A stretch of 64,000 nt of DNA from Novakomyces olei (taxonomy: Eukaryota). The DNA lies in assembly GCA_016906335.1 (NCBI GenBank), contig JADEYG010000004.1, positions 372,001 through 436,000 of the forward strand. The letters run 5' to 3'. The position numbers and the translations under genes are program-made. A model generated the notes under the pieces. It made no database searches, was not told the origin of the DNA, and saw only the letters and a program-made list of their open reading frames with translations. Shown piece after piece: positions 7,714-44,162 of the stretch (positions within the stretch are counted from its first letter, which is position 1; each line of letters begins with the position of its first letter).

Positions 7714-9243
7714 ATGACTGATCTGCAGGTACATGTCGATCGTACAAATATAGCGGTTGGAGATGCAGTGACAGGGCAGGTCGAGCTTTACTTTGCTGAC
7801 TATGACCCAAGTGTCAGGACCGTACGAATCACTTTGGTCGGCACAATTATAACAACGATCAGGGACCGGCATTATCGCCACGGACTTCATGATCCCTACT
7901 GTCATTATGGCCATGGATTCCAAAATCCTGTAATAAATGATTTCGACCATGTTTTTAACAATCACTATGATCCTTTTGGTTATGCCGGCCATAACCATTA
8001 TGGTGACAATTTTGATAACGCTTTCGCGCACGGAGGACGGTTGAGTGAAACTCACAAGTTTTTAAAAATAGGTGCTATTGCGTATGACTCTGCGATGGCT
8101 TTGGGAGGTCAAGAATCTTTCAGGCCCGGCCTGTACGTTTTCCCTTTTGTCCTTCGAATTCCTGAAATGAGTATCTGCGCTTCCTGTGGCCGCGAATGCC
8201 GACCTTGTCGGACCATTAATACGGGAATCTTCGGTTCTATTTCCGTCCAGTACGTGCTTAAAGTCAAGCTTAGACGTGAAGGCGTGCTTAAGCTTAATCA
8301 GAAAAGGACAGTGGAGATTTTAGTCCGGAGCAAATCCGTCCCCGACAATCTCGGCAACAACAGATATCCAAGGTCGGCCGATAGGGCGGTATCTGAGGGA
8401 GAGACGAGTAAAGAGACGAGTAAAATGTTTGAGCAGAGAAGCAGTGGCCTGGGCAAAGATAATGATGGTTACAATCATGATTACAATGATGATTATAAAG
8501 ACACCGATAATAGATACGTGCAAGAGAAAGAAGCCGGGACTAGCGAGCAAAAGGCGAAATGGTACAGCCAAGACAAATCTAATCAAACTGAAAATGATGC
8601 AGAATCAAACAGTAAAAAGCCTAATGGCAAAGACAAAGATTTGCGTGGGCACTCTGGGCCGGCAGTGATAATGCCAGAAGCAGTTCCCTACTTGCCAAAC
8701 TATTCAGAAAGTTGCAATACAGCTCTTGTCTATTCGCCTGAAATGGCCCAGCAAGACGGAGTCGGAGACACAAGGCCGATGGCATCGTTGGAGCAAGTAC
8801 TCGACCTCAAACAGTTTCTTGTCTTTTCTTTATGCAGTATCTTTGTCAGGATTTCTTTCCCTGAAATTGACCCCACCGACCGTCTAGTGCCCCGTAAAAG
8901 CTCACAGAGAATAATACTGAGTTTGAGACTGGTAGGCGGATATCAGAATGCTCCAATTTTACAAAAGTTTTCGGTGCGAATGTTCGAGCGCACGACCATG
9001 CGTACACGTTATGACGTATCAACTTTTTCAAAAAAGACACCAGCCCTTTTGACTTCTAATGACCGATTTCCCGTGTATGGTAACGAGGATTACAAGCTGG
9101 ATAATTCTTTCTTTTGTGAAAGTGGCGATTTTGATTCCGTTCAGTTGTGTACGCTCACAACTGACCATTTTTTCCGGATTAAACTCAATTTTAAAGGGCT
9201 GCGCAACACCTTTTGCATCGATTACCCTATACGATTGTGCTGA
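7714..9243 (+). CDS. Arrestin-fold (alpha-arrestin-like) protein, paralog A
   Basis: Intronless 509 aa; GDAVTGQVELY, VRITLVG, PGLYVFPFVLRIP, SVQYVLKVKLRR are arrestin-N-like; LPNY PY-type motif. Confidence 0.7.
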   Translation: MTDLQVHVDRTNIAVGDAVTGQVELYFADYDPSVRTVRITLVGTIITTIRDRHYRHGLHDPYCHYGHGFQNPVINDFDHVFNNHYDPFGYAGHNHYGDNFDNAFAHGGRLSETHKFLKIGAIAYDSAMALGGQESFRPGLYVFPFVLRIPEMSICASCGRECRPCRTINTGIFGSISVQYVLKVKLRREGVLKLNQKRTVEILVRSKSVPDNLGNNRYPRSADRAVSEGETSKETSKMFEQRSSGLGKDNDGYNHDYNDDYKDTDNRYVQEKEAGTSEQKAKWYSQDKSNQTENDAESNSKKPNGKDKDLRGHSGPAVIMPEAVPYLPNYSESCNTALVYSPEMAQQDGVGDTRPMASLEQVLDLKQFLVFSLCSIFVRISFPEIDPTDRLVPRKSSQRIILSLRLVGGYQNAPILQKFSVRMFERTTMRTRYDVSTFSKKTPALLTSNDRFPVYGNEDYKLDNSFFCESGDFDSVQLCTLTTDHFFRIKLNFKGLRNTFCIDYPIRLC

Positions 9244-9636
9244 ATTGGAGGAGAAGGCAGTATCCTAATAAGGATGATTCTGTAAAATTGGTCAGACAGG
9301 AAAGAAACCAAGCACGGATAATGGTAACCATGAGAGAAAACAAATAAGAAAAATTATAAAGGCTAAAACGGTTTTCAAAGCGTCAAAAACAGTGGACCGC
9401 ATGGGAAAAGGGAGTACAATCATATTTGCAATTATATTCGCATTGTTTTGCCGTGGAATTTTAAAGCTTTATTTCATTTCTATACATTATCCAGCATATA
9501 TAGCGGCGAAATTGTTCCGTTTAAAGTCAAAGGCATTTCATTCAATAAAACCTTAGCGTTCTTTGTCACACGTTCTGTCACAAAATACAATATCCTAAAT
9601 GCATTTGTATGCGTACACCACTTTATTTATTACTCG

Positions 9637-10127
9637 TTACTTTTTACCATAGATCCAGTCATTAAGACCGCGGCGATTGCGGGCAATTTCTATAGCGAGA
9701 AACTGCATTCGCGGAACAAACATTGTAGTCTTCTCCTCGTACTCTGCTCGGGCGCTTGTCCGTAATAATGTTCCAAATGAATAATCTTTAATTTCTTCGC
9801 GATTAGCGTATCGCATCATAAACTCTCGCCACCGCCTTTTGCCTTCGGCCGACTTCATATCGTCCTCATTAATCTCATCCACAGCTTCGCGTGGTACTAA
9901 CTCTGGGAAACTTTTCTCCAAGTCTTCCATGATCTCGTCGTCAATCTTTGTCAGAGTAAGCTCCGAGCCTTTGCGCATCTGCAGCAATGCCCAATATATT
10001 TGAGCATGTTCAACGGCTTTCACTGCAAATTGCATTTCAATCTTGATTGTGAGAACGTACACTGATAAAATGCGATTACCTCTTGCAAGTTTTCCGCCTC
10101 ATCGGCGTTGAATGTCTGTGCGCTCAT
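9637..10127 (-). CDS. PBDC1/YPL225W-family protein (2 exons)
   Basis: MSAQTFNADEAENLQE|IEMQFAVKAVEHAQIYW..LTKIDDEI..MKSAEGKRRWREF..DYSFGTLLR..FVPRMQFLAIEIARNRRGLND. Confidence 0.9.
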
Positions 10128-10822
10128 ACTAAAAAGGCACTGGAGTCTGATTTAAATTTATTTTCGTGAATTTTCAGCACGTTTGCTATATATTGCTTGT
10201 AAACACATGCATCATTTTCTCCATTGAATCAGCGATAGCGTACTGATTAGGGTTAGGGCTAAACACTCTAATTGCACTCGACGAAATGCCGGGGGACAGT
10301 GAAGGCATAACGAGACGCGATCCCGTCGATTGCCGCAAATCAAACACGGTCTCGAACTAATCTTATAGAGACTATCGTTTGTAATTTCTGTATTCCAGAT
10401 TACTGAAACAGGCTACTTTCCCAAGGCTGTAGCTTTAGAAGCGTGCAAGCTTCTCATCTTACAGATCAAGCATGTAAATACTATTTGGCGCGTACCGCGT
10501 ACACTTTGCTCACAAGCTCGCACAGCCTTGTTTCCATTTAATCATTGAGTTTATACTATGCTGAATCCTTGCATCCATGTTCACATGATCATACTAATGA
10601 GACGAAGACCACGTGACAAGGCAGTAGGCCAAAAGCAAAAAGAATGAAAGTAAACAGCTTCCTTTGTGGAACAGAAAAAAATCAAAAATAAAAACTAATT
10701 TTAAACAAACAAAACTGAGCAAAAAAAACGTATGGAAATGAATCGAAATCTGAACGAAATCTAAACGGACTAGACTATCAAACTAGTCGAAAATAAAAGC
10801 ATAGCCAAGAAAGCAATTGGCA

Positions 10823-12427
10823 ATGCCATACCTCACTGTTCGGCTCAAATCTTCAGTTATTAGAATCGGTGAAACTCTGAAAGGGACTGTGGAAGTGTAC
10901 AATGAAGACATGGACTCAATCGACAGTATTCGGGTACAGTTACTGGGCAATTGCTACACGACTCTCTCCACAGACACTTCGAGATTCGGTGAGTCTGATG
11001 CTTTTGCGATGACAAGCAATAACAGCGAGAGACATACGTTTTTGAAGCGAAGCTTGATCGTTTACGACCGACTTTTGCAATACGGCACAGGAGAGCAAAG
11101 CCCTAAGCTGCCAACATCAGCGCCGATTTCTGTCAGACCAAACGTGTGGGCTTTTCCCTTTGCTTTGGCAGTGCCCATTGAATCTACGTGCTCTTATTGT
11201 CGGCAGCCTTGCTTGGTCGCTCCTTCCTTTTCGACTCTGACTCGAAGCGCTTACGTGTTTTACCGCGTTCAAGTGGATCTGAAAAATGGATGGTTACGAC
11301 GCGATCGTAAAAGTTGCCCCGTTTACGTGCTGCCCCCAATCATGAAGCGTGCGCAATATAACGAGCGGCTTTTGACGGACAAAAATAAAGCGACAAGAAA
11401 GGGTAAAGCAGTCAAACGGTGTGATATAGAAAGAGATGATGTGGACATGAGAGCTGGTAATGGAGACAGAGAAAATGTCACTTTAAACAGACGACTAAGA
11501 GCCAAAAGTGATGAGGGAAATTTGGCCAGACCTGATGACGAACCTTTGCCGCCTTATACTCCAACTTCATCAGCAAGCGGCGATGATGAAGCTCATAGCG
11601 TCACAAATGGACCCTTACTTTCTTCGCCTTCCACAGACTATGCTAGTTCTTCCTCGAATGATGCAGCAGCAAGAGAAGGCAAGGATAAGGGCAGAGACAT
11701 GGACACGGACATGGACACGGACAGAGACATGAACATAGCGGCAGTAAGAGCAATTGCCAGCTCTGCCGGTCTATCTCCTGCAATTGCACCCTTTGAACAG
11801 CAGCCGTCGTCTCTCTCTTCGCGTTATGTGTACGAAGATACGCAAGTGCCGGACGAGTATGTTTGTCAAGCTCGGCCGAGTATTACGTGGGACCTTATGA
11901 GCCTGACTGGAGCAGAAGCAAGGCAAGAAACAGGAGAACAAATCTCAAACGGGGCAACGGCAATAAACATACTTTTAAAACTGCACTCCTATTTCTTTTG
12001 GACTTGGTGCTACGTCAAAGCGATTGTCGACCTGCCTTTAATACAGCAAAACGGACAAATAGCAGAGCGCGCTAGTATTCAGCCTATTCAAATCCGGCTT
12101 CGCCTCGAGGCTTCAGGATTTCGTAAACCCTTCCCAGTGCTGCTAAAAATGACTCTAAAGCTGTATGAAATAACGACAGTGAGAGCCAATACGGAATACT
12201 CTACAATCCCTCACAAATCAGACCGTCTTCTCTGCAGTCTGGAGAGACTCGAGCTCGTACCGCTGCAGCATTATATTATAAATCACACGTTCGGTCTTCC
12301 ACAAACGGCTTTTCAGAGTGATATGAAGCTGTGCAACATCCAGTGCTCGCATTATCTTTGTGTTAAACTCGAATTTGAAGGCTTTCGGAATACTTTTCAT
12401 CTCAAGCACCCGATAACGATTGTGTAA
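10823..12427 (+). CDS. Arrestin-fold (alpha-arrestin-like) protein, paralog B
   Basis: Intronless, first ATG 10823; GETLKGTVEVY, IRVQLLG, WAFPFALAVP, VFYRVQVDL; LPPY motif; C-terminus similar to paralogs A and C. Confidence 0.7.
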   Translation: MPYLTVRLKSSVIRIGETLKGTVEVYNEDMDSIDSIRVQLLGNCYTTLSTDTSRFGESDAFAMTSNNSERHTFLKRSLIVYDRLLQYGTGEQSPKLPTSAPISVRPNVWAFPFALAVPIESTCSYCRQPCLVAPSFSTLTRSAYVFYRVQVDLKNGWLRRDRKSCPVYVLPPIMKRAQYNERLLTDKNKATRKGKAVKRCDIERDDVDMRAGNGDRENVTLNRRLRAKSDEGNLARPDDEPLPPYTPTSSASGDDEAHSVTNGPLLSSPSTDYASSSSNDAAAREGKDKGRDMDTDMDTDRDMNIAAVRAIASSAGLSPAIAPFEQQPSSLSSRYVYEDTQVPDEYVCQARPSITWDLMSLTGAEARQETGEQISNGATAINILLKLHSYFFWTWCYVKAIVDLPLIQQNGQIAERASIQPIQIRLRLEASGFRKPFPVLLKMTLKLYEITTVRANTEYSTIPHKSDRLLCSLERLELVPLQHYIINHTFGLPQTAFQSDMKLCNIQCSHYLCVKLEFEGFRNTFHLKHPITIV

Positions 12428-12612
12428 CGTCGATCATTGATATACATAGATAAATTTTGATCAATAACATCAAAATCAATCTTCATTAAACCCAATATTC
12501 ACATTATGGACAGACCGGCTGAAACCCTGGTCAGCATATTTGGGCATAGATCTGGACTGCTTTCTCCAACGATCCTATTACTTTTCGCTGTGCGACCGTT
12601 ACAGGATCATAA

Positions 12613-13563
12613 TCAGGGAGGAACAATCTCGCCCTTCCAGTCCCAACAAGACCCCCGATCTTGCGCATTCCGGCTCGCCACAACCGACAGTAATCGTTCT
12701 GCTGTGAAATCTGCAGTAAACAATTTATCTTCACGAACATTGGACCAGAAATCTCGGCTCAGATCTGTTTTCACCGTCCCCGGATGAAGAGTGTAAGCAA
12801 TCGCATTTTGGCCACTGTAAGTTCGTAGATAATTGTCAAACGTTTTCACTGCTTGATTAAGAGCAGCCTTGGATGAGCGGTAGGAGTACCATCCGCCCAG
12901 CTTGTTATCGGAAATACTTCCGACCCGTGCAGATATGGCGGCCAATGTACTGTGCTTTGCGACTCCTCTGCTTTCGCCGGCATTAAGCAGCGGCAACTGT
13001 GCTGCTTTCTTTGGTAAAAAAGGCGCAAGGTACTTGATCAGCATCATCGGGCCAATAGTATTAATGCGAAAACTGTCGAGTGCTGACGCGTACTCAATCT
13101 GGCCGGGCACTTTTTCCACGTGCAAGACTCCCATCATAATCATCGCCAAATGCAAGTGAGAATCAGGGAACCATTTCTTACAGGTCTCTGCCATTTCTTT
13201 CACACTTTGTTCATCTGTAATTGATCAGTACTTTACGTAAATCTTCTTTATATCTGCGATGTTTTGAGTGGGATTTGGTTGGATTAATTGCTAAATTTTT
13301 GCCCTCTAAATTTCAAATTTGAAGAGGCTTCTCCACGGCAATAACCCTCTTGTTTACGCATTGCTACCTGTCACATCGAGATGTACCATACGAAGCCGAT
13401 GTTCATATTGTCTGGTCTCGTCACGCAGAATTTCACGTCGAGCATTATCAAGATCGCCGCGAGCAGTGGCTACTATGGGCAAACTCGTATCCCGCAGCAA
13501 TTTTCTCGTTACTGCAAGACCAATGCCTCGCGAGGCAGGAGCTGCCAGGATCCATGGTGGCAT
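12613..13563 (-). CDS. Short-chain dehydrogenase/reductase (CsgA/C-factor-like), 2 exons
   Basis: PASRGIG Rossmann motif, ISARVGSISDNKLGGWYSYRSSKAALN (YxxxK), LHPGTVKTDL. Confidence 0.92.
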
Positions 13564-13940
13564 ATTATCGGGGCAATTCAGAGTATAATATACTGTTAAA
13601 TATAACGTTTAATATAATGTTTAATATAATTGTACAATATTAATGTATAATATAAATGGGCAATATAATCCTGGAGAAAAAAGATAATTAGGACCGTGAA
13701 TATACAAATACAAATACTTTATAATTTACCAAATTCTGTATGATTACCTTTACCCTAACTAACCCTATAATTATCTCTGTACTCCTGACCAACAATCCCA
13801 AGGCACCAACTAGTCTTCCCAGCGCGACACAATATACAGTCTGAGCAGCAATTTGAAAAGGAGAATAAAAAATGAAAAAAAAGAAGAGCAGATAAGCGAT
13901 CAAGCAAGGAGGAGCGCAGTTATACGGCGACGGTAAGTGA

Positions 13941-15407
13941 ATGGCTCAAGCGGGTTTGCAAATACAATCGGCCACGGTAGCTCTCGGATCGGTGATTGAG
14001 GGCGCTGCTATAGCAGACATTAAAGAATACGATCCACATTTCAGCAGTCTGGTGGTCAAATTTGTGGGCAAATCGTTCTCGAGGCAAGTCCGGAGTCGGG
14101 GTCGCCATTCTTTCGTGTACACGGAGACACACAAGTTTATAAACCGCAGATGGATTGCGTATGACACGGCAGCGAATGGCGGACGCAACTTGCGAGCGGG
14201 TCGGTACACGTTTCCCTTCCGTTTTGTGCTGCCGTTTGTCGCACAGTGCGATAAATGCGGCTGCAAGCTGCCTCTGGCACCGTCGACAAGTGTGAGCGAC
14301 GGATCGATAAAGTACAAAATTTGTGTTAAAATCAAACGCTCCGGGTTCCTGCGACGTGATTCACGTCAAAAGCGGGTACTGACAGTTGTGCAGCAACTGC
14401 CACCGCTCATAGGTTGCTACAATATGACGCTGCCGCAGACGCCGTCAGTGGATATGGAGGGGTTCCACGAGAGAATGGACAGCATGATACTTGACGGTAC
14501 AAGCAGTGCACAGCGCAGTTTTGATTTGGACAAGGCTGGTCGCTGGGCCGCTGCTGCGTCTAGAAAGACGCTGCCTTACAAGGATTATTCTGAGCATGTG
14601 GAGCATGTGGACGGTGAGTACGGAGACGGTAGCACAAGCGGAGGCAGCACAGAGAAAAAGTGGGCTGGAAGCAAAAGTACCGTCAACATAAAGAGCACTG
14701 GAGAGCATAATAATCAAGAAAAAAGGGGAAAGCAAGAGAAGGGGGAAAAGCAATACTCTGGCAGTTCTGGCACTTTAGGGTTTGTAGACCAGCAATTGAG
14801 CACTCAACCCGGAGCCGTTACGGTCACATTGGACCAGGCACCAGCAGAGTATCGTGGAGCAGATGATATCTACTCTCCGTTCCTTGTCCCGGCTCTAGCT
14901 GCATGGGACAGTGAACGTGTTCACTGCTGGGATGTAACGCCAACTTTCTTGGAGACGGGAGTCAGTCAGATATTTGTGCTGAGACGTAGACTGTTCAACA
15001 CCTGGTGCTCGATGTACGTGCATGTGATAGTGACTCCCAAACGGTTCCATGTGCCTGGAACCTGGCAGCGTATCGTCATAACCCTAAAAGCGCTCAATTC
15101 ATGTATCTCGGAGACGCCAATCCTGCAAAAGCTATCCGTTGATGTTGTACGGCAAACAGTGGTCCTGGCGGAAGGCTATTCGGATAAAAGCTCAAAGCAA
15201 TATGGGCATGTTCTTTCTCTTAAGGACTTGAAATTGCCCATCACCAATCACACGATTGATGAAACGTTCATTTTGCCCACGGGACTGGGCGGTTCAATAT
15301 GCCACTGCAATATCTCGCGATTTCATTATTACCGTATCAAGCTTGATTTCAAGGGAAGCAGAAATACGTTTTACGTTTACTATCCTGTGTATGTGCTCGA
15401 CACTTGA
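13941..15407 (+). CDS. Arrestin-fold (alpha-arrestin-like) protein, paralog C
   Basis: Intronless 488 aa; GSVIEG, LVVKFVG, ETHKFI, AGRYTFPFRFVLP, LAPS, SIKYKICVKIKR. Confidence 0.7.
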   Translation: MAQAGLQIQSATVALGSVIEGAAIADIKEYDPHFSSLVVKFVGKSFSRQVRSRGRHSFVYTETHKFINRRWIAYDTAANGGRNLRAGRYTFPFRFVLPFVAQCDKCGCKLPLAPSTSVSDGSIKYKICVKIKRSGFLRRDSRQKRVLTVVQQLPPLIGCYNMTLPQTPSVDMEGFHERMDSMILDGTSSAQRSFDLDKAGRWAAAASRKTLPYKDYSEHVEHVDGEYGDGSTSGGSTEKKWAGSKSTVNIKSTGEHNNQEKRGKQEKGEKQYSGSSGTLGFVDQQLSTQPGAVTVTLDQAPAEYRGADDIYSPFLVPALAAWDSERVHCWDVTPTFLETGVSQIFVLRRRLFNTWCSMYVHVIVTPKRFHVPGTWQRIVITLKALNSCISETPILQKLSVDVVRQTVVLAEGYSDKSSKQYGHVLSLKDLKLPITNHTIDETFILPTGLGGSICHCNISRFHYYRIKLDFKGSRNTFYVYYPVYVLDT

Positions 15408-19134: not shown

Positions 19135-19712
19135 TGTGAGCAATGTGTCTCTGTCCACTAAGCCGCCCGCTATTTGTGTCACTAAATAAAGCGCTGCTTG
19201 AGTCTGTTTGCTCAGCGCCGTATATTAATTACGACACTATATATCCGCACTATGAATTTGGAGCACGGAATACATATAATCTGTGCACCAGATACAACCA
19301 ATAATAATAAAAAATTAATGAAGTCAAAAGTTAACTAACCCTAACCCTCTTTTTATTCGCGATTGTAGTTGCAGGCATTAATTAATATGCGCAAACGACG
19401 CCAGGCTGTTTATAGCTGCAGCTTCGACATCCGGCAAGGTGCACGACGAGACTTTGTGGGAGCCAATCCTTTAGTCCTGTGCATTTCTATCAGCCTTTTT
19501 ATACACTAGGTTCTCAGTAGACTCGTCTACAAGGTACGAGACTGGTTTTGTCTGTCAGCCGCCGAGCTCGTTTCGAGAATGTCGATTTATTGAACGGCTT
19601 TGAAAAGGCACAAAGCGCCTTGCCGGCCTTGATTCTGGTAAGGAGACCGAGACGAGTTCAATCAAGCTTACTAGTTTGCTTAGCATTGCGCAAATTGCAG
19701 CTTTTCACGAAA

Positions 19713-26543: not shown

Positions 26544-27989
26544 CTATATATCGGTGGGCGACTTTTCCCGCACAGTAGTGACAAGCGCCGGGACTTGATG
26601 AGCACTATTCTTATCCTTTGCCGCAATAGCTGTAGCAGCTGCGCTAGCACCTTCGGAACCACCACTGCCGACGCTGTTGTGTCTACCCCGGATTTTCCCG
26701 AAAATATTACGTAATCTCAACGCGTTACGCGTGCCCACAATGGCACGTGAAAATCGGGTATTTTCGTGATCCTCCACGTATCGCATAGTGACAAAAGTGG
26801 CAGCAACAGCCCACCAGTAGAGAATGTAAGAGATAACGGTGGCATAGTAGCCCGTGTTGCTCCATCCCAGAATGGCGTTAAACACGCCCCATCCGGAATT
26901 GTTGTTCAGCTCTGGATTGCCATAGTTTACGTGCCAAATGGCTTTACGGAAATCATAAGTGCCAAAGCCGGAGCCGAGTTCGGCCACGTCTCCGCCCACG
27001 AGTTTATTCCACTTGTACTGCTCAAAATACCCGCAAGCCTTGGAGAAAAGACCCGCTGAAACGAGGTACAGGATACACGTTGAGGCGATAAGGAACCATT
27101 GCAGGCGCATTACGTCACCGCCCTTGTAGATAAAGTATCCGATAAGGCAGCCCACGATTAATCCCACCACGACAGCGAGCGGGAAACTGCGGGCCGGTTG
27201 GGATAGGCCCACACCGCCAACAAACACAATTGCTTCCAGGCCCTCACGCAAAACAGTGACAAAAGGCAGCAGGAACATTGCGTATTTTTGTGACATGTGG
27301 GCAATATAGCCTGTGCTGCGTTTCTTCTCCTCCATGACGCGCTTTAGTTTTGATGTCCATTTGCCCTTTAGTTTAGAGACGCGTAGCATTGCCACACCCA
27401 TAAGAGTAATCAAGATTGTGGCAATCAGGGAGAAGACGCCCTCCCATATTTCCTCACTCTTGGACCAAATATCGTTACGCAACCCGTAAAAGGTACCGAT
27501 AAAGGCTCCACCAAGAATAAGACACACGAGCAGGCCTAAACCGGCGCCCCACCAGACTTGACGAACTAGGCGTTTATGCAAAGCAAAGTCTGTAAGCGAA
27601 GGCGACGCAGGCGGAACAGTAGCTTCCGCTTCGGCGGCGTAGCTTCCAGGCGCGTTTGATTCTGGACCCGAGTTACCGGTCGCATTAGGAGTCTCGGGTT
27701 CGATTCCCGATGCTTTCTCATTTCCTGACTCTGACGCCACAGGAGCAGGCTGAGATTTGGCGGCGAATACATTGCCCGTCTCGCTAGTGCCGCCGAGGTT
27801 TCCCGGATTACCGCCGCCGCCGCCAACGCCTTTCTCCGAGACTTCAGTATTGCCAAACGAGTCCGAGTCGCTGTTTACTTGCAGCAATGATTGCTTTAAA
27901 AACGCCAAAAGAACAGAGACAATAATAGAAGCTTCCAGCGTCTCACGAAGAACGATGAAAAACACAGGCACGGAAAACACGTCCGGCAT
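26544..27989 (-). CDS. FTR1: High-affinity iron permease
   Basis: Two RExxE motifs (FFIVLRETLEA, VTVLREGLEA), multiple TM segments; divergent from the ferroxidase gene. Confidence 0.97.
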   Translation of the reverse strand: MPDVFSVPVFFIVLRETLEASIIVSVLLAFLKQSLLQVNSDSDSFGNTEVSEKGVGGGGGNPGNLGGTSETGNVFAAKSQPAPVASESGNEKASGIEPETPNATGNSGPESNAPGSYAAEAEATVPPASPSLTDFALHKRLVRQVWWGAGLGLLVCLILGGAFIGTFYGLRNDIWSKSEEIWEGVFSLIATILITLMGVAMLRVSKLKGKWTSKLKRVMEEKKRSTGYIAHMSQKYAMFLLPFVTVLREGLEAIVFVGGVGLSQPARSFPLAVVVGLIVGCLIGYFIYKGGDVMRLQWFLIASTCILYLVSAGLFSKACGYFEQYKWNKLVGGDVAELGSGFGTYDFRKAIWHVNYGNPELNNNSGWGVFNAILGWSNTGYYATVISYILYWWAVAATFVTMRYVEDHENTRFSRAIVGTRNALRLRNIFGKIRGRHNSVGSGGSEGASAAATAIAAKDKNSAHQVPALVTTVREKSPTDI

Positions 27990-28658
27990 TGTGTTTTTGC
28001 AGTAATTATTATTCTTCTCGTCCTCTTGTCACCTCGTTACCTTGCAATCAGATACAGGAATTAAAGCCAGTGGCGGCAATTGAAATGCTGAATATTCGCT
28101 TCAATGCTTTCCACAACGAGTGCCGCTTTTAATGTTCCGTGGAAACTTCAATTGGCCTCAATAGTCCTCGCTTTGGTACACTTGATGGCCAAAAGAGTGT
28201 CGCCTCCGTGTCGCTCTATATATATTTTTTCTCGTGCATTTTATTGTCTTTCCACCATTCCCAATTAGGCAAGAGTTGTTGTGCGATACAATTCGCTGGC
28301 TAAATTAGCCTTTTTCACGATTCTGGAGTTTTTTTCAGAATACACGTTATACTTGAAAGGTTAACAGGTTGCCGGGCGAGCAAAAGTGGCAACTAGACCA
28401 GTGTCGTGGAAAAGGTAGAAATAGATTTTGGACCGCAATTGGAGGAACTTTATGGTACTTCTATCTCTATCCCGGCTCACTCACTCTCTACTATATTTTA
28501 CAGGCAAGCTTTAGTGTAGTCAGTACCAGCTTCGAGGCCCGTCGTCTGCCATTTGCAAACGGAGCTGTGTGCGTGGAGCAATGGATGTGCGTAGCGGATC
28601 AGATACCGACGTCGCCGCTTATTGGTACCTTTACTGGATATGGGAAAGGGTCTCGCCA

Positions 28659-28760
28659 TTATCTGATTTGATTATCAGATGTCGAACTTGGCCAATCACA
28701 GCAGCTCCTCGGTCTTATCTGATGGGTGGATGCTTTAATGGGCCCACTTTCTCCCCCAAT
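28659..28760. promoter_or_regulatory. Iron-repressor GATA sites (ATCWGATAA x3) plus two CCAATCA boxes in the FTR1/FET3 bidirectional promoter
   Basis: TTATCTGAT 28659-28667, TTATCAGAT 28672-28680, TTATCTGAT 28715-28723; CCAAT at 28692 and 28756. Confidence 0.8.
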
Positions 28761-29313
28761 CACGTACGTCCGTGCACTATAAAAATTAGTCTACCGTGAA
28801 AAATTCGTTAAAACAGACTCGTCATATATACAGGAGAGCATAGTCGATAAGTTACTTTTAGATCTTGATAAAATAGTGCTTTTCGCACACCTGCCTGTGT
28901 GCTTTCTCTTTATTTTATTTTTTTCCTTCTCGGTACGTCCCTTCCCCTTCTGGACCAAAAGGCAATGGGTATATATGTCGGACTAGCGAGCGAGGAATAG
29001 TTTGATATTAATAGACGAGAAATCTGGGCTCTGACTGACTTTCAAACTCATTTTTATTTTCCGTTGCACTTAATCGTTCCCAGTTGATTTTGGCTGTGCG
29101 ATTGTTTTGGCTTTCAGCAGTCTGCCGTTGCTTTCATACCCAATTCCAATCTTGTTGAGACAGCAACAGAATTGAAATGAGGCATTGAGTTTACAAAAGT
29201 CTACGGTTGGCATTGAAAATAAAGGAAAAGGAGAAAGAAGGATCTGACGATCCGGTTCCACAGTCACGAAATTTTGTTTTATTCAAAATAAATAAATAAT
29301 CAAATAAAAAATA

Positions 29314-31412
29314 ATGCTCCAGATTTTATCACTGATAGCGTTACTCGCAGCGCATGCGCTTGCAGCTACTCGTGAATACCATTGGAATATCACAAATGTA
29401 CCAAACATTGATCCATTGGGTCAAGGCCGGCCACGTACGGCAATGGGCGTCAATGGCCGGTGGCCGCCTCCTCCAATTGATGATCTCGTTTACGGCGATC
29501 GTGTAATTATCTATATGAACAACCATCTGGACGACGGTCGACCCACAACCTTACACGCTCACGGTATCTTCCAAAACGGAACCAATTGGGCTGATGGACC
29601 CTCTATGGTCACACAATGGTACGTCTTCAGCTTGAAATAAAACGAGACAGACTCGGAAAGGAGAACATAATTAAGCGCTCAAACCGGGGAATGAAATGTT
29701 TTGTTTTTGTTCGCTACTTTTCGTCCTTATTTTTTTTTTTCTGTTTTTTTGGCTCTAATTTTTATTTTTTTGATTTTTATTTTACAATTTCAACCCCAAT
29801 TTGTCTTGCTTCTTTTTGCTTAATATCCGCTCTACACGATTTACTAATATACAGCGGTGTCCCTGTCGGTGAACAGTTTGTGTACAACTTCACGGTTAAT
29901 CAGAACGGCACTTACTGGATCCACAGCCATGTAATGGGCCAGTACCCCGAAGGCTTAAGGTCCCCCTTCATTATCCACGCGACGGAAGAGCCCTTCGAGT
30001 ACGATGAGGAGTACACGATTTCCCTGTCTGACTGGTACAATGACAATATCGACATGCTTACGACGCAAGTATTTCAAAACATAAGAAATCCCACTGGAGC
30101 GGAACCCGTCCCGGATGGAGCGTTGATGAGCGATACACAAAACGCTACTTTTGCCTTCACTCCTGGCCGAACTTACCGTCTGCGTTTTGTTAATATGGCC
30201 GCTTTTGCTGCCTTTCACGTATGGATTGAGGATCATGAAATGACGATTATCGAGGTGGACGGAGAGTATACGAACCCGCACCGTGTAAGCGACGGTTTCA
30301 GTATAACAGCGGCCCAACGCGTAAGCGTCCTGGTAACGGCTAAAGATCGACCCGATCGTAATTACGCGATCGTAGGGTCAATGGACACGGACATGTTTGA
30401 CACGGTTCCGGAGGGCCTTAACCCTAATGTCACGAGTTGGCTTGTTTACAATTCCTCCTGGCCAAGAGAGCCGGCCGCCCCGTTGGACGAGTTGCCAGTT
30501 ATTGACGAAATGGCTCTTTCCGCACTTTACCCAATGGGGCCGATTGTTCCAGACTACACTTTCAACATGGACGTGCTGTTTGATTTGCTCGGAGACGGTC
30601 AAAATCACGGTATGTTTAACAATATCGCCTACCGTGCGCCCAAAGTGCCCACGTTTGTCACCATGAGAAGTGCTGGTGCGCTGGCAAGTAACCCTACGGT
30701 ATACGGAGCGCCCACTCAAGCCAGGATCCTTCCCCATATGGGCCATATCGAAATGGTTATTAATAATTTCGATCCGGGCAAGCACCCTTTCCACGTGCAC
30801 GGCCATACGTTTCAGATTGTGGCAAAATCGGAAGAAGACAGTGGGCCCTATAACGGGTCCGATGTATTCATGGGGCCTGTGAATCCAGTCCGGCGGGATA
30901 CGGTACAAGTACCGCCGAATGGTTATGTCATCGTAAGGTGGGTGGCGGACAATCCGGGAATCTGGTTCTTCCACTGTCACATTGAGTGGCATATTGTATC
31001 GGGTCTTATCTCCACTTTTGTTGAGGCACCAGAACTCGCTTCCCAGCAGCATGTGCCTGATTACGTGTACGAACAATGCGCTGCTCAGGGGATTGCTACA
31101 TCGGGAAACGCCGCTGGTAATAATGTAGACTATCTCGATCTCTCGGGTGCAACTGAGGAAATTCCGCCAATGGTTCATGGCTGGACACCCAAGGCCAAGG
31201 GCGTTCTTGCCCTCTGCGTTATTTCTGCACTGGTTGGGATGGCAAGCATTACGTGGTACGGAATGAGCGATCTCAGAGAGCCTGTTGTCAAACGTAGTGT
31301 TGTCACTCACGTTGAGGAGCTAGAGGATAGGCTATTGCATGATCAGAGCAATCTAAGGCACCGGACTGTCGAGTCTAGACTGCAGGATGAGGACACGATA
31401 CGCCTGTCCTGA
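29314..31412 (+). CDS. FET3: Multicopper ferroxidase (2 exons)
   Basis: Signal peptide, TTLHAHG, YWIHSH, NPTGAEPVP, HPFHVHGH, WFFHCHIEWHIVSGL, C-terminal TM helix. Confidence 0.97.
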
Positions 31413-33862: not shown

Positions 33863-33936
33863 TGCTCTCCGCCGGAATCGAACCGACGACCTCTTCATTA
33901 CTAGTGAAACGCTCTAATCCACTGAGCTAGGAGAGC
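33863..33936 (-). tRNA. tRNA-Thr(AGT)
   Basis: GCTCTCC/GGAGAGC acceptor stem, TAGCTCAGTGG A box, TTTCA-CT-AGT-AA-TGAAG anticodon arm, GGTTCGATTCC B box. Confidence 0.96.
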
Positions 33937-34047: not shown

Positions 34048-37000
34048 ATGGATGCAAAGGCGGTGCAGGGCACGAATGACGCCTCAATTGTATCAAAGCG
34101 GTCAGCTGAAAAAGCAGGATACCTCCCTGACGAAGGTCTTTTGCGCCACTTTGTGCGTAAGCCGCAACGGCGGGCCGCCCTAATAAATCGCGGCTACTAT
34201 GTCCGCACTCAGGCAATTGACCAAAGTGTACGGACAGCCTTAAGCCAAGGGTCACGCGCTGTGATAAATCTTGGATGCGGCTTTGATCCGCTGCCATTTC
34301 GGCATTTACGTACAGAAAATATTAAAAGCGATGACAATAAATTTGTCAATCACATTGAAGCAGTCTTTGTAGATGTTGACTTCCCCGAGCTCATTGCACG
34401 TAAAGAGGCAATTGTAGACCAAAATTTGCAAAATGGAAATGCTGCCACTAATCGTTACTTTACAGTGGGATGTGACCTTGCCGACCTCGCAAGCTTGCAT
34501 GAAAAGCTGGCTTCGATCGTCGACCTGAACTTGTGCCGTCCAGTGTTTGTGATGGAGGTTTCCTTAACATACGTGCCGGCAAAAGCAGCGTCACAGCTTA
34601 TTGAGTGGATGTCACAGTTTGAAGGAGCTACTTGTATTGTCTTGGAGCAGTATTTACCATTTGGTGAGGAACATCCTTTTGCTCAAACAATGCTTCAGCA
34701 TTTTGATCGGCTTCGATCGCCTCTTCAGTCTCTTAAACGATTCCCGTCTTTGCAAGCTCAATGCGCTCGCTTTGACGCAAAGAAATGGCCACAAGTTGAT
34801 GCTGAAAGTCTGCATGCACGGTGGAACAAACTGCCTGCTGCCGAACGACGGAGGGTTCAAGCCCTTGAAGCCTTTGATGAATGGGAAGAGTTTTTTTTGT
34901 TTTTGCAGCACTATTTCGTCCTAGTAGCTCATGCTACCAGTGGGCAGCGTACAAATGAGGAGTTGAAAAAATCTGAAATTGACAACCAAGACCAAAAGTC
35001 TAAATCATTACAAATTGATGACAATAAGAATTGCAATTCACACACAGACACTATCATTCAATCTTTTGATTTCTGCCTTTTCCCCCTGAGTCCTGTCAAG
35101 CATGGAGCAGCTTCTTGTCTTGGGGACAGTGATTCATATCCTATTTTCTTACATGGCGGAGTAGCAATAAAGGGCAGAAGCGACAGATCCGAGCTTCTTT
35201 ACGGGGAACAGGCACAAGACGAAAAAGAAACAGATATCGATAAAAAATATTTAAATTCTCTGGCAGCAGCCCCAATTAGCGCTCGCCAGAATCATGTTTG
35301 TGTGCAAAACAAATACGCTGGTTCACTACTTATCTGCGGTGGCCGGGCGTCTCCGACGGCGTTGCCCAGCGACGCCTGGATGCTGGACTCCGCATTGGTA
35401 TGGCAGCGCGTGGGGAACATTGAACGGTTCCGTCATTCTGCTGTTGCCACGGCAACCGGGTTCTTGGTGTATGGTGGAATGACAGCCAACGGAACAGTTT
35501 TGGATTCCTGGTTGCTTGTAGAAAAGTCACAAGTCAAAACTTTACCTTTTGTCTTTTCGTCATTGTCAAGGGTTAGAAACGGCCCACGGCTCTTTGGTGC
35601 TTGTATGACTGTTGATGAAGATACAAAAAAATATTTTGAAAATGAGGATGTGTCGCAGGGTTACCTGTTTGGTGGCCTTGATGGTGATTTTAGTCCAAAT
35701 CGTTTTCTGTACAAGTGGAACCTTGTTCGTCCAGTCGGCCAGGACACTTTTTGCAACGACAGGTGCGAGCCAAACCAAGAACAAGGCAGTTTTCACGTCA
35801 GGATCAGCCTTGTTGCAGAACTGCCTTTGGACTTGTGCCGGTTTGGTGCTCAGTGCTTCCCTTGTGAGCAAGACAATACAGCATTGGTACTTGTGGGCGG
35901 TGTTGGTACAGTGGGTCCGGTATCATCTCAGGCTGCTGTCTTTGAGGTTTGCGAGAGACAAGAAGAAAAGAGTTTTAGTAACAACATAAGCGAAGACTCA
36001 ATTACTCGATGGTGTCGTGCTCAGACTTTCAATATAGACAACAAGCTTTTGCTTACGGGTCATCAACTAGTTTCACTGGGCAAAACTTTTGTTGTAATAG
36101 GTGGAGGAGCAGTTTGTTTTAGTTTTGGTTCGTATTGGAACAAACACGGGGCCAGTTTTGGGCTCAATGGGCAGAGTTTGATAAAGTATCAAGAAAAATT
36201 ACTGGCTCCAAAGCCAAATTTGCCTTTCATACAGAGCACAAGCCATTCAAAGTATAGTACTTTCTCGTCTATCAGCAAACCTGGACAGACTTGCTGTGCA
36301 CAGCCGAAACAATCGCCACCGCCTTTTCGTCTGCTCTTTACGAGTCTCGGTGGCGGAGAAGGAGAGCTTTTACAATTATTGGACAGAAAAGCACCAGCTG
36401 TCTTTACAGAGCAGCAAATCGGCTCCTGTTCTTCACTTTGGACTAGTGAATATTTACAGCAAAAAATTGGCGACCAGCGACAGGCCGTTATCCACAAATC
36501 TGATGCAAAGGACCTTAGTTTTGCCCACAAAAACTTTGAGTACAAGTCTATGGGCTTTGCACAGTTTATTAAGCAAGTCTTTGATCCAAGCAATAATGAA
36601 AGCCTTTACCTTCGGTCACTTTCGCAAGAGGCCCCTAATGGCCAACCCGCCGATTTCGCAAGAGATTATCCTGAAATTGCTGATGATTTCCGTCTCCCGA
36701 AGCCTTTGGATACTGTGTCGGAAAAGCTTTTCTCTACGCCATTAAGGATATCTTCTAAGGAGACATCGATCTGGCTTCATTATGATGTAAGTGATACTCT
36801 GCTATATCAAGGGATTTACGTATATGCTCCCGAAAGTTTTTATTTTGGTCAGTTTTCTTTATGTGTAATTTTGTCTTAACCTTTTGGTTTGATACTTTCC
36901 CCCCTTTTTTTGGTTAAAAGTTTTTCCTTGATCTTTTAAAAAACATTTTCTTAACCTATTCATAAACCTCCTCTCGAGTCCTCACTTTTATCTATATTCT

Positions 37001-37433
37001 AACTGTCTAGGTAATGGCCAACTTTCTCATACAAGTACGAGGACAAAAGCTGCTCTACTTGTTTTCGCCCGAGCAAGTATCAGCTCTCCAATTCAAACCG
37101 GGTTCTACTGTAAGCGAGATTCAAGCGGCAGATCTCAACCTCACTGTCCCCCACAATAAAGTCATTCTCAAACCTGGTGACATTGTATACATCCCTCCTC
37201 TTTATCCTCACGCAGCACAAGCTCTTGAGCCTAGTATTAGTATCAACGCGTTCTGGCGCGATCTCAGTCCAGCCTGCTATGATCAGGGACGCGATATATA
37301 CGGCAATAAGGATTTGAAAGGCTACGATCGAGCACGGGGTTATATTGCAAAGGCCAAGCAAGCGATCCAACATTTACCGAGCCAAGAAAGAGAATTCTAT
37401 CTTTGCCGGCTCGCGGACGAGCTGCTACTATAA
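34048..37433 (+). CDS. PPM2: tRNA wybutosine-synthesis methyltransferase (LCMT2/Tyw4) with Kelch repeats and C-terminal JmjC domain (2 exons)
   Basis: VQGTNDASIVSKRS, INRGYYVR, VINLGCGFDPLPF, FDEWEEF; Kelch GG repeats; WLHYD|VMAN..PPLYPHA JmjC; intron 36787-37010. Confidence 0.93.

Positions 37434-37476: not shown

Positions 37477-37513
<37 letters not shown>
37477..37513. repeat. (TA)n microsatellite
   Basis: Uninterrupted AT dinucleotide run. Confidence 0.95.
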
Positions 37514-37543: not shown

Positions 37544-38790
37544 CTTGGACACAAAGTCAGATAGAGAAAAATTATAGAACCGTCATTCTATCGCGGGTTA
37601 CGGCTTGCATGGAACCAGTTACGCATAATCTCACCGACTGCTGCATTGTACGTAATTCCCACATAGACATGAATTAATTATATGTATGTATAATTCAAGG
37701 CACACAGGACTCGGGCACAAAACCCATGATGACAATGCATCCCTATGACGCGACAAGTTATCCATTGTTTTGTGGAAAAGACGCCTTTGCTCCAGGACAA
37801 GTCGAGTAAGAAATAAAACTGCACAAATGTCCATTTTTTTAATGCCGCATACAACCCTGATAGGCACAGTTATGGTATACTCTCTTGATGGAAATTGCAC
37901 ACGTAAGGCAGCCCGACTAGCATTATAATGGTTTCTTCTACTTTAACAAGCAATTCCTGAAGGGCCATGTAGAAATGACTGGCGAAAATGCAGGCCAGGG
38001 AAGCAAACCATAAAAGAAGCCGGCCAAGAATTGCAGTCCGTGATTCAGTCTTGATACTGAGTTGGCGAAGAGCAATTCAGGTGGCCTCCTGCTGCCAATT
38101 ACAGCAGGTTGGGCCTTTTACGGGAGTCCACAAGATTGTTCCATTTGCAACATTCCTTTCAAGTCAAACAGACAAATGCTATACGCAAACGGAGCAAGCC
38201 TTGTTATATGGACTCCTACGGGCCATCTCAAACGCCTCACACAAAAGCATGGCCGGCCAAAAGTCTGCCGGCACTACTCTCAAACTGCCATTCTTATTCC
38301 GAGACCCGTGACAGCCCGTGAAGCAAAAGACCCGGTAGATTATTAGAAGTAATCAGCAGCCTCGGTCTGTACGGAAGGGCGTTGGGGAAGCACAATGAGT
38401 ACACACTGGCCCCTACTCGGGTCAAGGCCCTAAAGAAGGCAAAGAGATGTGGCTGGTGAGATAGAGCCCTCGTACAAGGAAAATGTCAGGGTTATGTATT
38501 GTCTTCTACACTCTGGGCTAAAGACAGTCCGTATAAAGACCGTCTCGTTGCCATGCGACTCCGAGACGCGCCCTTGCCCTCCTCTTTTATATACGGCGAT
38601 TGCGTATGAAGCACCATGTTCAAGTCGGAATTCAGCCGCACAAGTCTAAAGCGCCAGAGTGCTTTGATAGAAAACAGAGTAGACGCCATAAAGGCACATG
38701 CTAGTCGAGCGGGTCCAGAGCAGAAATTTGAGCTGGATTGTGTGCAATTGGCACCAGTTTGTATATCCTCATTGTGCAACGGTGGAAGTT
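37544..38790 (-). ncRNA. Putative telomerase RNA (TER); ends approximate
   Basis: No recognisable protein gene. Ordered elements on the minus strand: core-enclosing helices (38698-38710/37911-37923; 38740-38749/37893-37902), template-boundary arm (38500-38676), template UAACCCUGAC (38494-38485), triplex pseudoknot (38026-37928), P6 (37765-37726) and P6.1 GGGU-UUUGU-GCCC (37725-37713). G-U pairs work only on the minus strand. Confidence 0.87.
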
Positions 38791-39208
38791 TTACGCGTCG
38801 GCGTTGTTTTTATGTAGGAAATAAATCATATATAAATAATATATGAATATAAATTATATATGAATATAATAAACATGAATAAATTAGTACTAAAAATACA
38901 TATAAAACTACGCGTCAAAATAATACATATAAAATTACTTTTATAATATAACACATAAAATTCATATATCCAACTACAATTCAAGATACTGGTGAAAATT
39001 GTGGAGGAAACGGTATATTTGCTGCGCGAATAGGGTAAATACGATTATTATGGTAGAATCCAAAGCCACTGTGTACCGTCCATGCACATACATTATTAAA
39101 ACATAAACATAATTATTACAATAATTAATAAACAAACGCATCAATCACGTACACAAAGAGATGAACGGTCGGCGAACTATCGAGTCATAGTACTAAAGAC
39201 GACGGAAA

Positions 39209-40054
39209 ATGCTACTTGATCCGCAACCGTAAGTCGGGATAGCAGTATAGAAAATAAAGCTGACAAAGCAGCGACTATGTGCGAAAGTTGGTGGTAGTGG
39301 GCGATGGTGGCTGTGGCAAGACGTGCTTGCTCATGGTTTTTGCAAGGAAACCGTTTCCAGAGGTACTCAAAGAGATAGGTGTGCACCAGCGCTGACATTT
39401 GAATAGAACTATTGCCCCACTGTGTTTGAAAATTACATTACCAATGTACGGCGCGGGAGCAAGATGGTGGAAATGGCTTTGTGGGATACAGCTGGGCAGG
39501 AAGAATACGACCGATTGCGACCTCTATCGTATCCAGAATCTGACGTGGTTTTAATCTGCTTTGCTATTGACTCGCAAAGCAGTCTTGCAAATGTACAGGA
39601 CAAATGGTATCCTGAAGTACGGCATTTCTGTCCGCACACGCCTGTGCTACTGGTCGGCTTGAAGAATGACTTGCGCAAAAGTAGAAAGGCCATTGATATG
39701 CTACGTGCTCAAGGCGAGTCGCCGGTGACGTTTCAGGAGGTAATTTACTTGTCTATGTGTCGAAGCTGTTTGCCATGAACTGTGGATCTTGCATGGATTT
39801 GTTCTATTTTTATTTTAGTATTTTCTAATGCTTTTCTTTTGTTCAAGAATGCATTAGCTATAGAGCGCCAATTCTGAATGTCGAAATGATTCTAACATCA
39901 GGCTTCTTCGGTCGCAAATTCGATTGGGGCGAAATACGTTGAATGTTCCGCAATGGAGAACCAAGGTGTGGACCGGGTATTTGAGACAGCAATTGACCTT
40001 GCCATAAACGCAAACTTCCACAAATTTAGGCGGAAATATTGCACTATTATCTAA
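39209..40054 (+). CDS. RHO4: Rho-family GTPase, Rho4-like (4 exons)
   Basis: [63 protein letters not shown]. Confidence 0.9.
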
Positions 40055-40540: not shown

Positions 40541-40624
40541 TGATTCCGGCGTGATTCGAACACGCGATATTCTCTGTGCTTACATAATGTAAAAGAGACA
40601 TCCTAACCACTAGATCACGGAACC
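40541..40624 (-). tRNA. tRNA-Val(TAC) with an 11-nt intron (40587-40577)
   Basis: GGTTCCG/CGGAATC acceptor stem, TCTCT-TT-TAC-A-[TTATGTAAGCA]-C-AGAGA, GTTCGAATC B box, T6 terminator immediately downstream. Confidence 0.93.
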
Positions 40625-43974: not shown

Positions 43975-44042
43975 GACGCAACTGGGTTCAAAGCAGCAAA
44001 AAAGTCAAAAAAAAAAAAAAAAGTGCACTTTTAGCGATATTA

Positions 44043-44162
<120 letters not shown>

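Follow-up and report, generated by a model that had tools for sequence, protein, structure and literature searches.

A 64,000-nucleotide stretch of Novakomyces olei DNA (contig JADEYG010000004.1; hereafter the window, with positions counted from its first letter) carries on its minus strand, at about 37561-38830, a candidate non-coding RNA gene that we read as a putative telomerase RNA (TER) with a catalytic-core pseudoknot at 38025-37928 and a major-groove triplex inside that pseudoknot. Taken as a whole, from gene to triplex, we consider this chain of claims about as likely to be right as wrong; the more general proposition, that the locus encodes a TER, is likely. An initial annotation of the locus had proposed a TER pseudoknot with a pyrimidine triplex. 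Its H-type fold, its register-matched loop 1 and the TER-like order of the surrounding elements stand, while its stem 1 has to be redrawn. The evidence consists of sequence complementarity, the uniqueness of the motif in the window, its non-random character, the plausibility, in thermodynamic terms, of both stem 2 and a revised stem 1, and the order of elements along one strand, where a template-like segment is followed by the pseudoknot and then by a junction of the P6/P6.1 type. Unless stated otherwise, all elements of the candidate RNA are on the minus strand, so that 5' to 3' corresponds to descending coordinates.

Stem 2 is formed by the 5' strand AUGGUUU(G)CUUC (38000-38011), in which G38004 is bulged, and the 3' strand GAAGAAACCAU (37928-37938), which contains GAAGAAA, the purine strand of the proposed triplex. 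Its 11 base pairs have a duplex energy of -9.9 kcal/mol and are present in both the minimum free energy (MFE) structure and the centroid of a 106-nt fold, bearing out the pairing of 38011-38000 with 37938-37928 that had been annotated. The mean pair probability of stem 2 is 0.32, 0.95, 0.80, 0.19 and 0.55 in sequence contexts of 126, 281, 601, 1021 and 1291 nt, respectively. Stem 2 is robust. Directly 5' of it lies the 8-nt loop 1, CUUCUUUU (38012-38019), of which CUUCUUU (38019-38013) is the proposed Hoogsteen third strand and U38012 a linker. CUUCUUU had been described as the exact parallel partner of GAAGAAA (37938-37932), and the register does match at seven of seven positions, with U opposite every A-U pair and C opposite every G-C pair, as in a parallel triplex of the pyrimidine motif. 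All four pairings originally listed, together with this parallel register, are present base for base on the minus strand.

The chance level of this arrangement was estimated with block-wise dinucleotide shuffles of the window. The unit searched for, called a “trio”, had three parts: a purine tract of 7 nt that is not a homopolymer; the Watson-Crick complement of the tract, allowed one bulge and lying 3 to 150 nt upstream; and, no more than 12 nt beyond the complement in the upstream direction, the image of the tract in C and U, read in parallel. The 64-kb window, searched on both strands (128 kb), holds a single trio, and it is the one at this locus; 38860-37440 contains no second trio even with the minimum length lowered to 5. 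By itself the trio is not significant window-wide, because shuffled windows hold one in 15 of 120 and 210 of 1613 cases (13%). At the locus the trio is accompanied by a 4-bp extension of stem 2 (AUGG/CCAU), which leaves one nucleotide to link the third strand to stem 2, and by an abutting 6-bp helix, which adjoins the third strand at its 5' end and stem 2 at its 3' end. Measured at anchors drawn at random from the real sequence, the extension has p = 0.021, the abutting helix p = 0.0099, and the two jointly 1.5e-4; among the 1613 shuffles none combines a trio with the extension, two combine a trio with the abutting helix and none has all three, numbers that overstate the significance, though by less than three orders of magnitude, because the composite criteria were framed post hoc with the case already seen. 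The real window has one case with trio, extension and abutting 6-bp helix. The composite architecture is far from chance.

The abutting helix also corrects the model of the pseudoknot. The annotated stem 1 had paired UGGCCGGC (38026-38019) with GCCAGUCA (37983-37976), and this complementarity does exist, with seven pairs (one of them G-U), one C-A mismatch and a duplex energy of -7.7 kcal/mol. Against it, 24% of random anchors yield an 8-mer that finds a Watson-Crick/G-U partner at 7 of 8 positions in a 61-nt loop (a chance level of 0.24), and no context gives it a pair probability outside 0.000-0.001, even with stem 2 and loop 1 masked in order to mimic the formed pseudoknot. It also uses C38019 doubly, once in a pair and once in a triple, and leaves 16 unpaired bases at the junction. 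A stronger alternative, the revised stem 1 (PK1), pairs GGCCGG (38020-38025) with CUGGCC (37998-37993) through five G-C pairs and one G-U pair (-9.4 kcal/mol). Only C37999 then separates PK1 from stem 2, and loop 1, at 8 nt, takes in the whole of CUUCUUUU (38019-38012). When stem 2 and loop 1 are masked, PK1 has a probability of 0.82, 0.009, 0.67, 0.13 and 0.66 in the 126-, 281-, 601-, 1021- and 1291-nt contexts. The two helices are contiguous with the revised stem 1 (1 nt) and not with the earlier one (16 nt); as described in the text excerpted from PMC3592445, TER pseudoknots of vertebrates and of fungi other than budding yeasts have contiguous helices, and those of budding yeasts have several unpaired residues at the junction. 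Stem 1 was probably drawn wrongly, and the revised stem 1 should replace it. That the annotated model is nonetheless exact, with its 16-nt junction unlike the non-yeast TER pseudoknots, is scarcely credible.

Loop 3 (37939-37992, 54 nt) ends in GUUAAAGUA and holds the segment 37983-37976, UUUCUAC (37975-37969) and GGAAUUGC (37957-37950). The last of these is complementary to 38034-38027, and an H helix of GCAAUUCUUGG (38034-38024) with UCAGGAAUUGC (37960-37950; -13.0 kcal/mol) can lengthen stem 1 outward, both being present together in the 126-nt masked fold. This H helix recalls the P2a extension of human P2b. The pairing of UUUCUAC with GUAGAAG (37975-37969 with 37941-37935), which had been put forward as a competitor of stem 2, exists and is weak; its 7 bp have a duplex energy of -5.3 kcal/mol and a pair probability of at most 0.11. 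In the 1021-nt fold the 5' strand of stem 2 has a second partner near 37883-37870. Judging from the folding models, these weak pairings, together with that of 38034-38022 with an upstream partner, could let the RNA alternate between hairpin and pseudoknot states.

The mechanism that we propose is that of an RNA of the type of the fission-yeast, filamentous-ascomycete and vertebrate TERs, in which loop 1 would cross stem 2 (11 bp) in its major groove, parallel to GAAGAAA, the purine strand. Counted from the helix junction, the predicted triples are C38019+.G37938-C38000, U38018.A37937-U38001, U38017.A37936-U38002, C38016+.G37935-C38003, U38015.A37934-U38005, U38014.A37933-U38006 and U38013.A37932-U38007, that is, five U.A-U levels and two protonated C+.G-C levels, one at C38019 beside the helix junction and one at C38016. 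Both cytosines would need to be protonated, with two U.A-U triples between them, and the G38004 bulge would fall between the fourth and fifth triples. A38011, with which stem 2 begins, would be connected to the third strand by U38012, and loop 3, 54 nt long, would run back along stem 1. An objection that a single linker nucleotide is unable to bridge the final 4 bp of stem 2 was dropped on a rule of groove width: in A-form RNA the deep groove reaches its minimum width over 6-7 bp, and a third strand at level 7 is thus near the opposite strand at level 11. The triplex would stiffen the core, help to bind the reverse transcriptase and position the template, and would therefore be needed for activity. 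Transcription of the locus, telomerase function, the formation of any triple and the protonation are what we infer from the features described here.

The other parts expected of a TER can be proposed on the same strand. The template candidate, ACAUAACCCUGACAU (38483-38497), is a 15-mer that includes UAACCC and whose two ends repeat the same 4 nt with a period of 11; it lies about 470 nt upstream of the pseudoknot and would specify (TTATGTCAGGG)n. On sequence and statistics, an H-type pseudoknot with a pyrimidine-rich, triplex-competent loop 1 is found 3' of it. Upstream of the template candidate, at a distance of 23 nt, a stable hairpin of 10 bp (38521-38546) is a possible template-boundary element, and the 85-nt fold that has this hairpin in its MFE structure and centroid gives z = -1.89, with 9 of 200 shuffles equally stable. 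For the Yarrowia clade, the excerpted text of PMC6746865 describes repeats of the form TT-N-AGGG, in which the insert is 4 nt and TAACCC is conserved, and (TTATGTCAGGG)n would have this TT-N-AGGG form. Further downstream, the telomere-strand-like UCAGGGUUGU (37851-37860) is a 10-bp complement of the template candidate (38495-38486), and it has an alternative partner, CAUAACUG, nearby. A TATA-like tatataaaag (38582-38591), seen on reading the letters, may be a promoter element or an internal sequence.

About 200 nt downstream of the pseudoknot, a three-way junction (37703-37747) is found in the MFE structure and the centroid of a 61-nt fold. Its helices are P5 (37747-37742 with 37708-37703), P6 (37741-37738 with 37731-37728) and a P6.1 hairpin (37725-37713) composed of GGGU (37725-37722), the loop UUUGU and GCCC (37716-37713). 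The hairpin has a probability of 0.81-0.97, and with its 4-bp stem, its position 3' of the pseudoknot and a 5-nt loop fitting NUNGN it agrees with P6.1, for which PMC3592445 gives, in the text excerpted, NUNGN as the consensus in vertebrates, N. crassa and fission yeast. Hairpins of the P6.1 type number 92 in the 128 kb, of which four occur in a comparable junction context; two of these four overlap at this locus and two lie elsewhere. An intron-like element of 47 nt, GUGAGA...CGUAAC...UAG (37588-37634), recognised by its motifs, begins 69 nt downstream of the three-way junction, and its length is near that of a 45-nt intron in the neighbouring GTPase gene. It is a possible spliceosomal 3'-end cleavage site, TERs of the fission-yeast type being cut by the spliceosome at such a position.

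These elements lie in an island with sharp borders. The GC content of 37561-38830 is 0.46-0.47, that of the AT-rich spacers on either side 0.25 and 0.27, and that of the neighbouring exons 0.46-0.52. The island showed no sign of coding potential: there are no stop-to-stop frames of more than 110 aa in 37561-38830, and none of eight frames tested in the locus reached a Pfam cutoff. The ends of the candidate gene are approximate. It falls within 1.77 kb that have no gene call.

Searches outside the window were made with several of these sequences. Metagenome contigs scanned for two copies of TTATGTCAGGG gave one locus (L001), in which positions 1347-1519 are an internal, degenerate array of 15.7 copies of an 11-nt unit with the consensus TTATGTCAAGG, on a contig with bacterial-looking open reading frames (ORFs). 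Part of the TTATGTCAAGG array is identical to the repeat that the template candidate would specify, a match that is probably coincidental; the array is uninformative on the telomere repeat because it is internal and lies between the bacterial-looking ORFs. A gapped pattern of the pseudoknot core had 0 matches in prokaryote genome contigs, and text searches of the literature for the sequences proposed here (telomere repeat, template, pseudoknot and P6.1) met unrelated primers only, so that none of these sequences is in print in the library searched.

Several results weigh against a TER with a triplex-bearing pseudoknot, in addition to the chance level of the bare trio and the post hoc framing of the composite criteria. 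The nested fold of the 106-nt region gives z = +0.65, with 150 of 200 shuffles equally stable, and the fold of the three-way junction gives z = -0.70. The revised stem 1 is poorly populated in two of the five masked contexts (0.009 and 0.13), because its 5' side can be captured by an upstream GGCCA...GAAUUGC (38087-38073; -12.8 kcal/mol). The template candidate is weak when taken alone, because the window has 20 TAACCC sites and 9 of them carry a terminal repeat of at least 4 nt. Moreover, its duplex with UCAGGGUUGU (-15.0 kcal/mol) is part of the MFE structure of the 1021-nt fold, and on this model the pairing may be a template-masking or core-enclosing helix, the template not being free. A canonical Sm site was not found in the candidate RNA, including the sequence before the intron-like element. 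Finally, an Rfam search, which included a run on the locus alone, had no match to a telomerase family, whether at gathering score or at the looser limit of E <=10; on the window it returned two tRNAs at gathering score and only sub-threshold miRNA and snoRNA noise at E <=10. A missing Rfam match does not exclude a TER, because TERs diverge beyond such covariance models.

These points bear differently on the alternative explanations. If the locus is a telomerase or other structured RNA with a real stem 2, loop 1 might still form few or no Hoogsteen triples (for example, U.A-U only), the register match being in part a coincidence of a pyrimidine-rich loop. We regard this as somewhat unlikely. 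The trio alone turns up in 13% of shuffled windows, the C+.G-C levels require protonation, the G38004 bulge breaks the Watson-Crick strand in mid-triplex, and solved TER triplexes have from 3 to 6 major-groove triples in the account excerpted from PMC7583470; set against this, the register is exact at all seven positions, the third strand begins at the helix junction and stops one nucleotide short of stem 2, and the full geometry occurs in 0 of 1613 shuffles. At the opposite extreme, the seven stacked triples including two C+.G-C would form the longest continuous TER triplex, in an ascomycete lineage with no close sequenced relative in the protein collection searched, giving a pH-dependent telomerase with a template that the internal, telomere-like UCAGGGUUGU can mask. 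This strongest version, which is unlikely, would go beyond the six consecutive triples that PMC7102945 gives as the maximum for natural RNAs of solved structure.

Decidedly unlikely is a different, non-telomerase non-coding RNA, in which the pseudoknot or triplex has some other function, for example in stability or in binding proteins. It would account for the Rfam search without a TER match, the weak template candidate that pairs with a downstream segment, and the missing Sm site. The arrangement of strands is, however, unlike that of triplexes of the type found in the element for nuclear expression (ENE), and the order of a template-like element, a pseudoknot with a pyrimidine loop 1 and a P6/P6.1 junction with an NUNGN loop is specific to TER as presented in the text excerpted from PMC3592445. 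We give still less credence to a chance combination of a mirror repeat and an inverted repeat in intergenic DNA without any functional RNA structure. Intergenic gaps of 1.6 kb are found elsewhere in the window too, and the folding z-scores are unremarkable, both of which favour such a combination, but it leaves unexplained the composite motif (0 of 1613 shuffles), the GC island with its sharp AT-rich borders, and the independent TER-like elements on the same strand.

The candidate triplex, read as part of a TER, is close to that of the K. lactis TER pseudoknot (PDB 2M8K), which is likewise a pyrimidine-motif major-groove triplex of U.A-U and protonated C+.G-C. As listed in the text excerpted from PMC7583470, the triples of TERs are three U.A-U in human telomerase RNA (TR), five U.A-U and one C+.G-C in K. 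lactis, and two U.A-U and one A+.G-C in Tetrahymena, and compensatory triple mutations show that the triplex is required for telomerase activity. A mixed U.A-U/C+.G-C triplex is therefore of a kind already known, since K. lactis TER has one (PMC7583470). The two differ in that the candidate is predicted to have two C+.G-C with its five U.A-U, against one with five in K. lactis, and in that the K. lactis triplex is solved, whereas that of the candidate is predicted from sequence. Cash et al. 2013 reportedly placed the C+ triple of K. lactis beside the helix junction and found bulges to be tolerated. The candidate also has a hairpin of the vertebrate P6.1 type, unlike the budding-yeast TERs, which are without it as described in the text excerpted from PMC3592445.

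The candidate resembles P2b/P3 of human TR (PDB 1YMO, 2K95, 2K96) in being H-type, in having contiguous helices, and in the position of a pyrimidine loop 1 in the major groove of stem 2, the human triplex being needed for activity (PMC7583470 and PMC3592445, in the portions drawn on). In the triples that PMC7583470 lists for human TR there are three U.A-U and no C+.G-C. Differences are also seen in the 11-bp stem 2 of the candidate, with its bulge on the pyrimidine strand, and in its 54-nt loop 3. In human TR, stem 1 is 6 bp and loop 1 is 8 nt long, and the revised model of the candidate has these same lengths.

In its overall plan the candidate is similar to the TERs of S. pombe (TER1), S. 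complicata and N. crassa described by Qi et al. 2013 (PMC3592445, as excerpted), which have a template, a pseudoknot and a three-way junction with a 4-bp P6.1 and NUNGN. In S. pombe TER1, which is 1207 nt long, T-PK spans 83-957 and the three-way junction 1029-1090, according to the same excerpt (PMC3592445). The size of the candidate is similar: the island is about 1.27 kb, and from its upstream edge the pseudoknot lies at about 0.8 kb and the junction at about 1.05-1.1 kb. In contrast to the fission-yeast and filamentous-ascomycete TERs, the candidate has no detectable sequence or covariance-model similarity to them and a P6 of only 4 bp, and the repeat that it implies is 11 nt long, against the TTAGGG of Pezizomycotina. 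Triple helices of the ENE type (MALAT1 and PAN) share with the candidate the stacking of U.A-U triples, and that of MALAT1 a C+.G-C as well. In the ENE topology, an A-rich tail at the 3' end is held between two U-rich strands that belong to an internal loop. The candidate differs, its third strand and its Watson-Crick pyrimidine strand being 5 nt apart and its purine strand internal.

Two plus-strand genes flank the minus-strand candidate RNA and delimit the 1.77 kb in which its GC island lies. One is a TYW4-like gene (34048-37433) with a GTAAGT...TTCTAAC...TAG intron, the product of which reaches no more than 33% identity in the protein collection searched; the other is a Rho/Ras-family GTPase gene that starts near 39215 and has short introns, one of them 45 nt. 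Between the stop codon of the TYW4-like gene and the candidate RNA gene is a (TA)n microsatellite of about 18 units (37478-37513). For Hsp60, the best match has 81% identity, and matches extend across Lipomyces, Glomeromycota, Mucoromycota and Pezizomycotina. In both cases the nearest proteins in the collection are distant. The host is an intron-bearing fungus, probably an ascomycete.

Double CCCTAA (TTAGGG-type) motifs, exact or near-exact, occur in the window at 10247-10258 (minus strand), 19335-19348 (plus strand) and 13752-13767 (plus strand). They lie 100-250 nt upstream of an ATG-led exon near 10127 (minus strand), a Striatin-family gene at about 19521 and an arrestin-like gene at 13941, respectively. 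They resemble “telobox” sites of promoters, to which a TTAGGG-binding factor would bind, and do not resemble TER templates. The (CCCTAA)2-type 12-mers at 10247-10258 (minus strand) and 19335-19346 (plus strand) had been considered as TER templates and were rejected, given their location 100-250 nt upstream of protein-coding starts. The arrestin-like gene is one of three tandem arrestin-domain ORFs on the plus strand (7714-15407), at 7714-9243, 10823-12427 and 13941-15407.

Other features of the window include a divergent pair formed by an FTR1 iron permease (minus strand) and a multicopper oxidase (plus strand) at 26544-31412, with a shared intergenic region of 1.6 kb; FTR1 and multicopper oxidase are the usual high-affinity iron-uptake pair of fungi. 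A tRNA-Thr (AGU) is encoded at 33863-33936 (minus strand), and a tRNA-Lys (CUU), identified with ARAGORN, at 40541-40624 (minus strand). In the Rfam alignment the latter has a 12-nt insertion after the anticodon, which is probably an intron. An (AAT)n microsatellite of about 40 units (44043-44162, plus strand) is preceded by a poly(A) run (44003-44022), the GC content being 0.09 over 200 nt.

To our knowledge, telomerase RNAs diverge fast and most fungal lineages are without an annotated TER; curated models missed the candidate locus described here. The principle is not new, because a triplex is an established feature of TER cores. What sets this case apart is that the lineage seems to have no relatives with an annotated TER and that the predicted triplex is unusually long and regular. 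If our reading is true, the locus would supply a TER for a lineage far removed from every annotated fungus, and a telomere repeat of 11 nt, of the form TT-N5-AGGG, is predicted for it. It would also mean that a mixed C+.G-C/U.A-U triplex like that of K. lactis is compatible with an RNA that has a vertebrate-type P6.1 junction, and it would provide a long, register-perfect natural triplex for biophysics.

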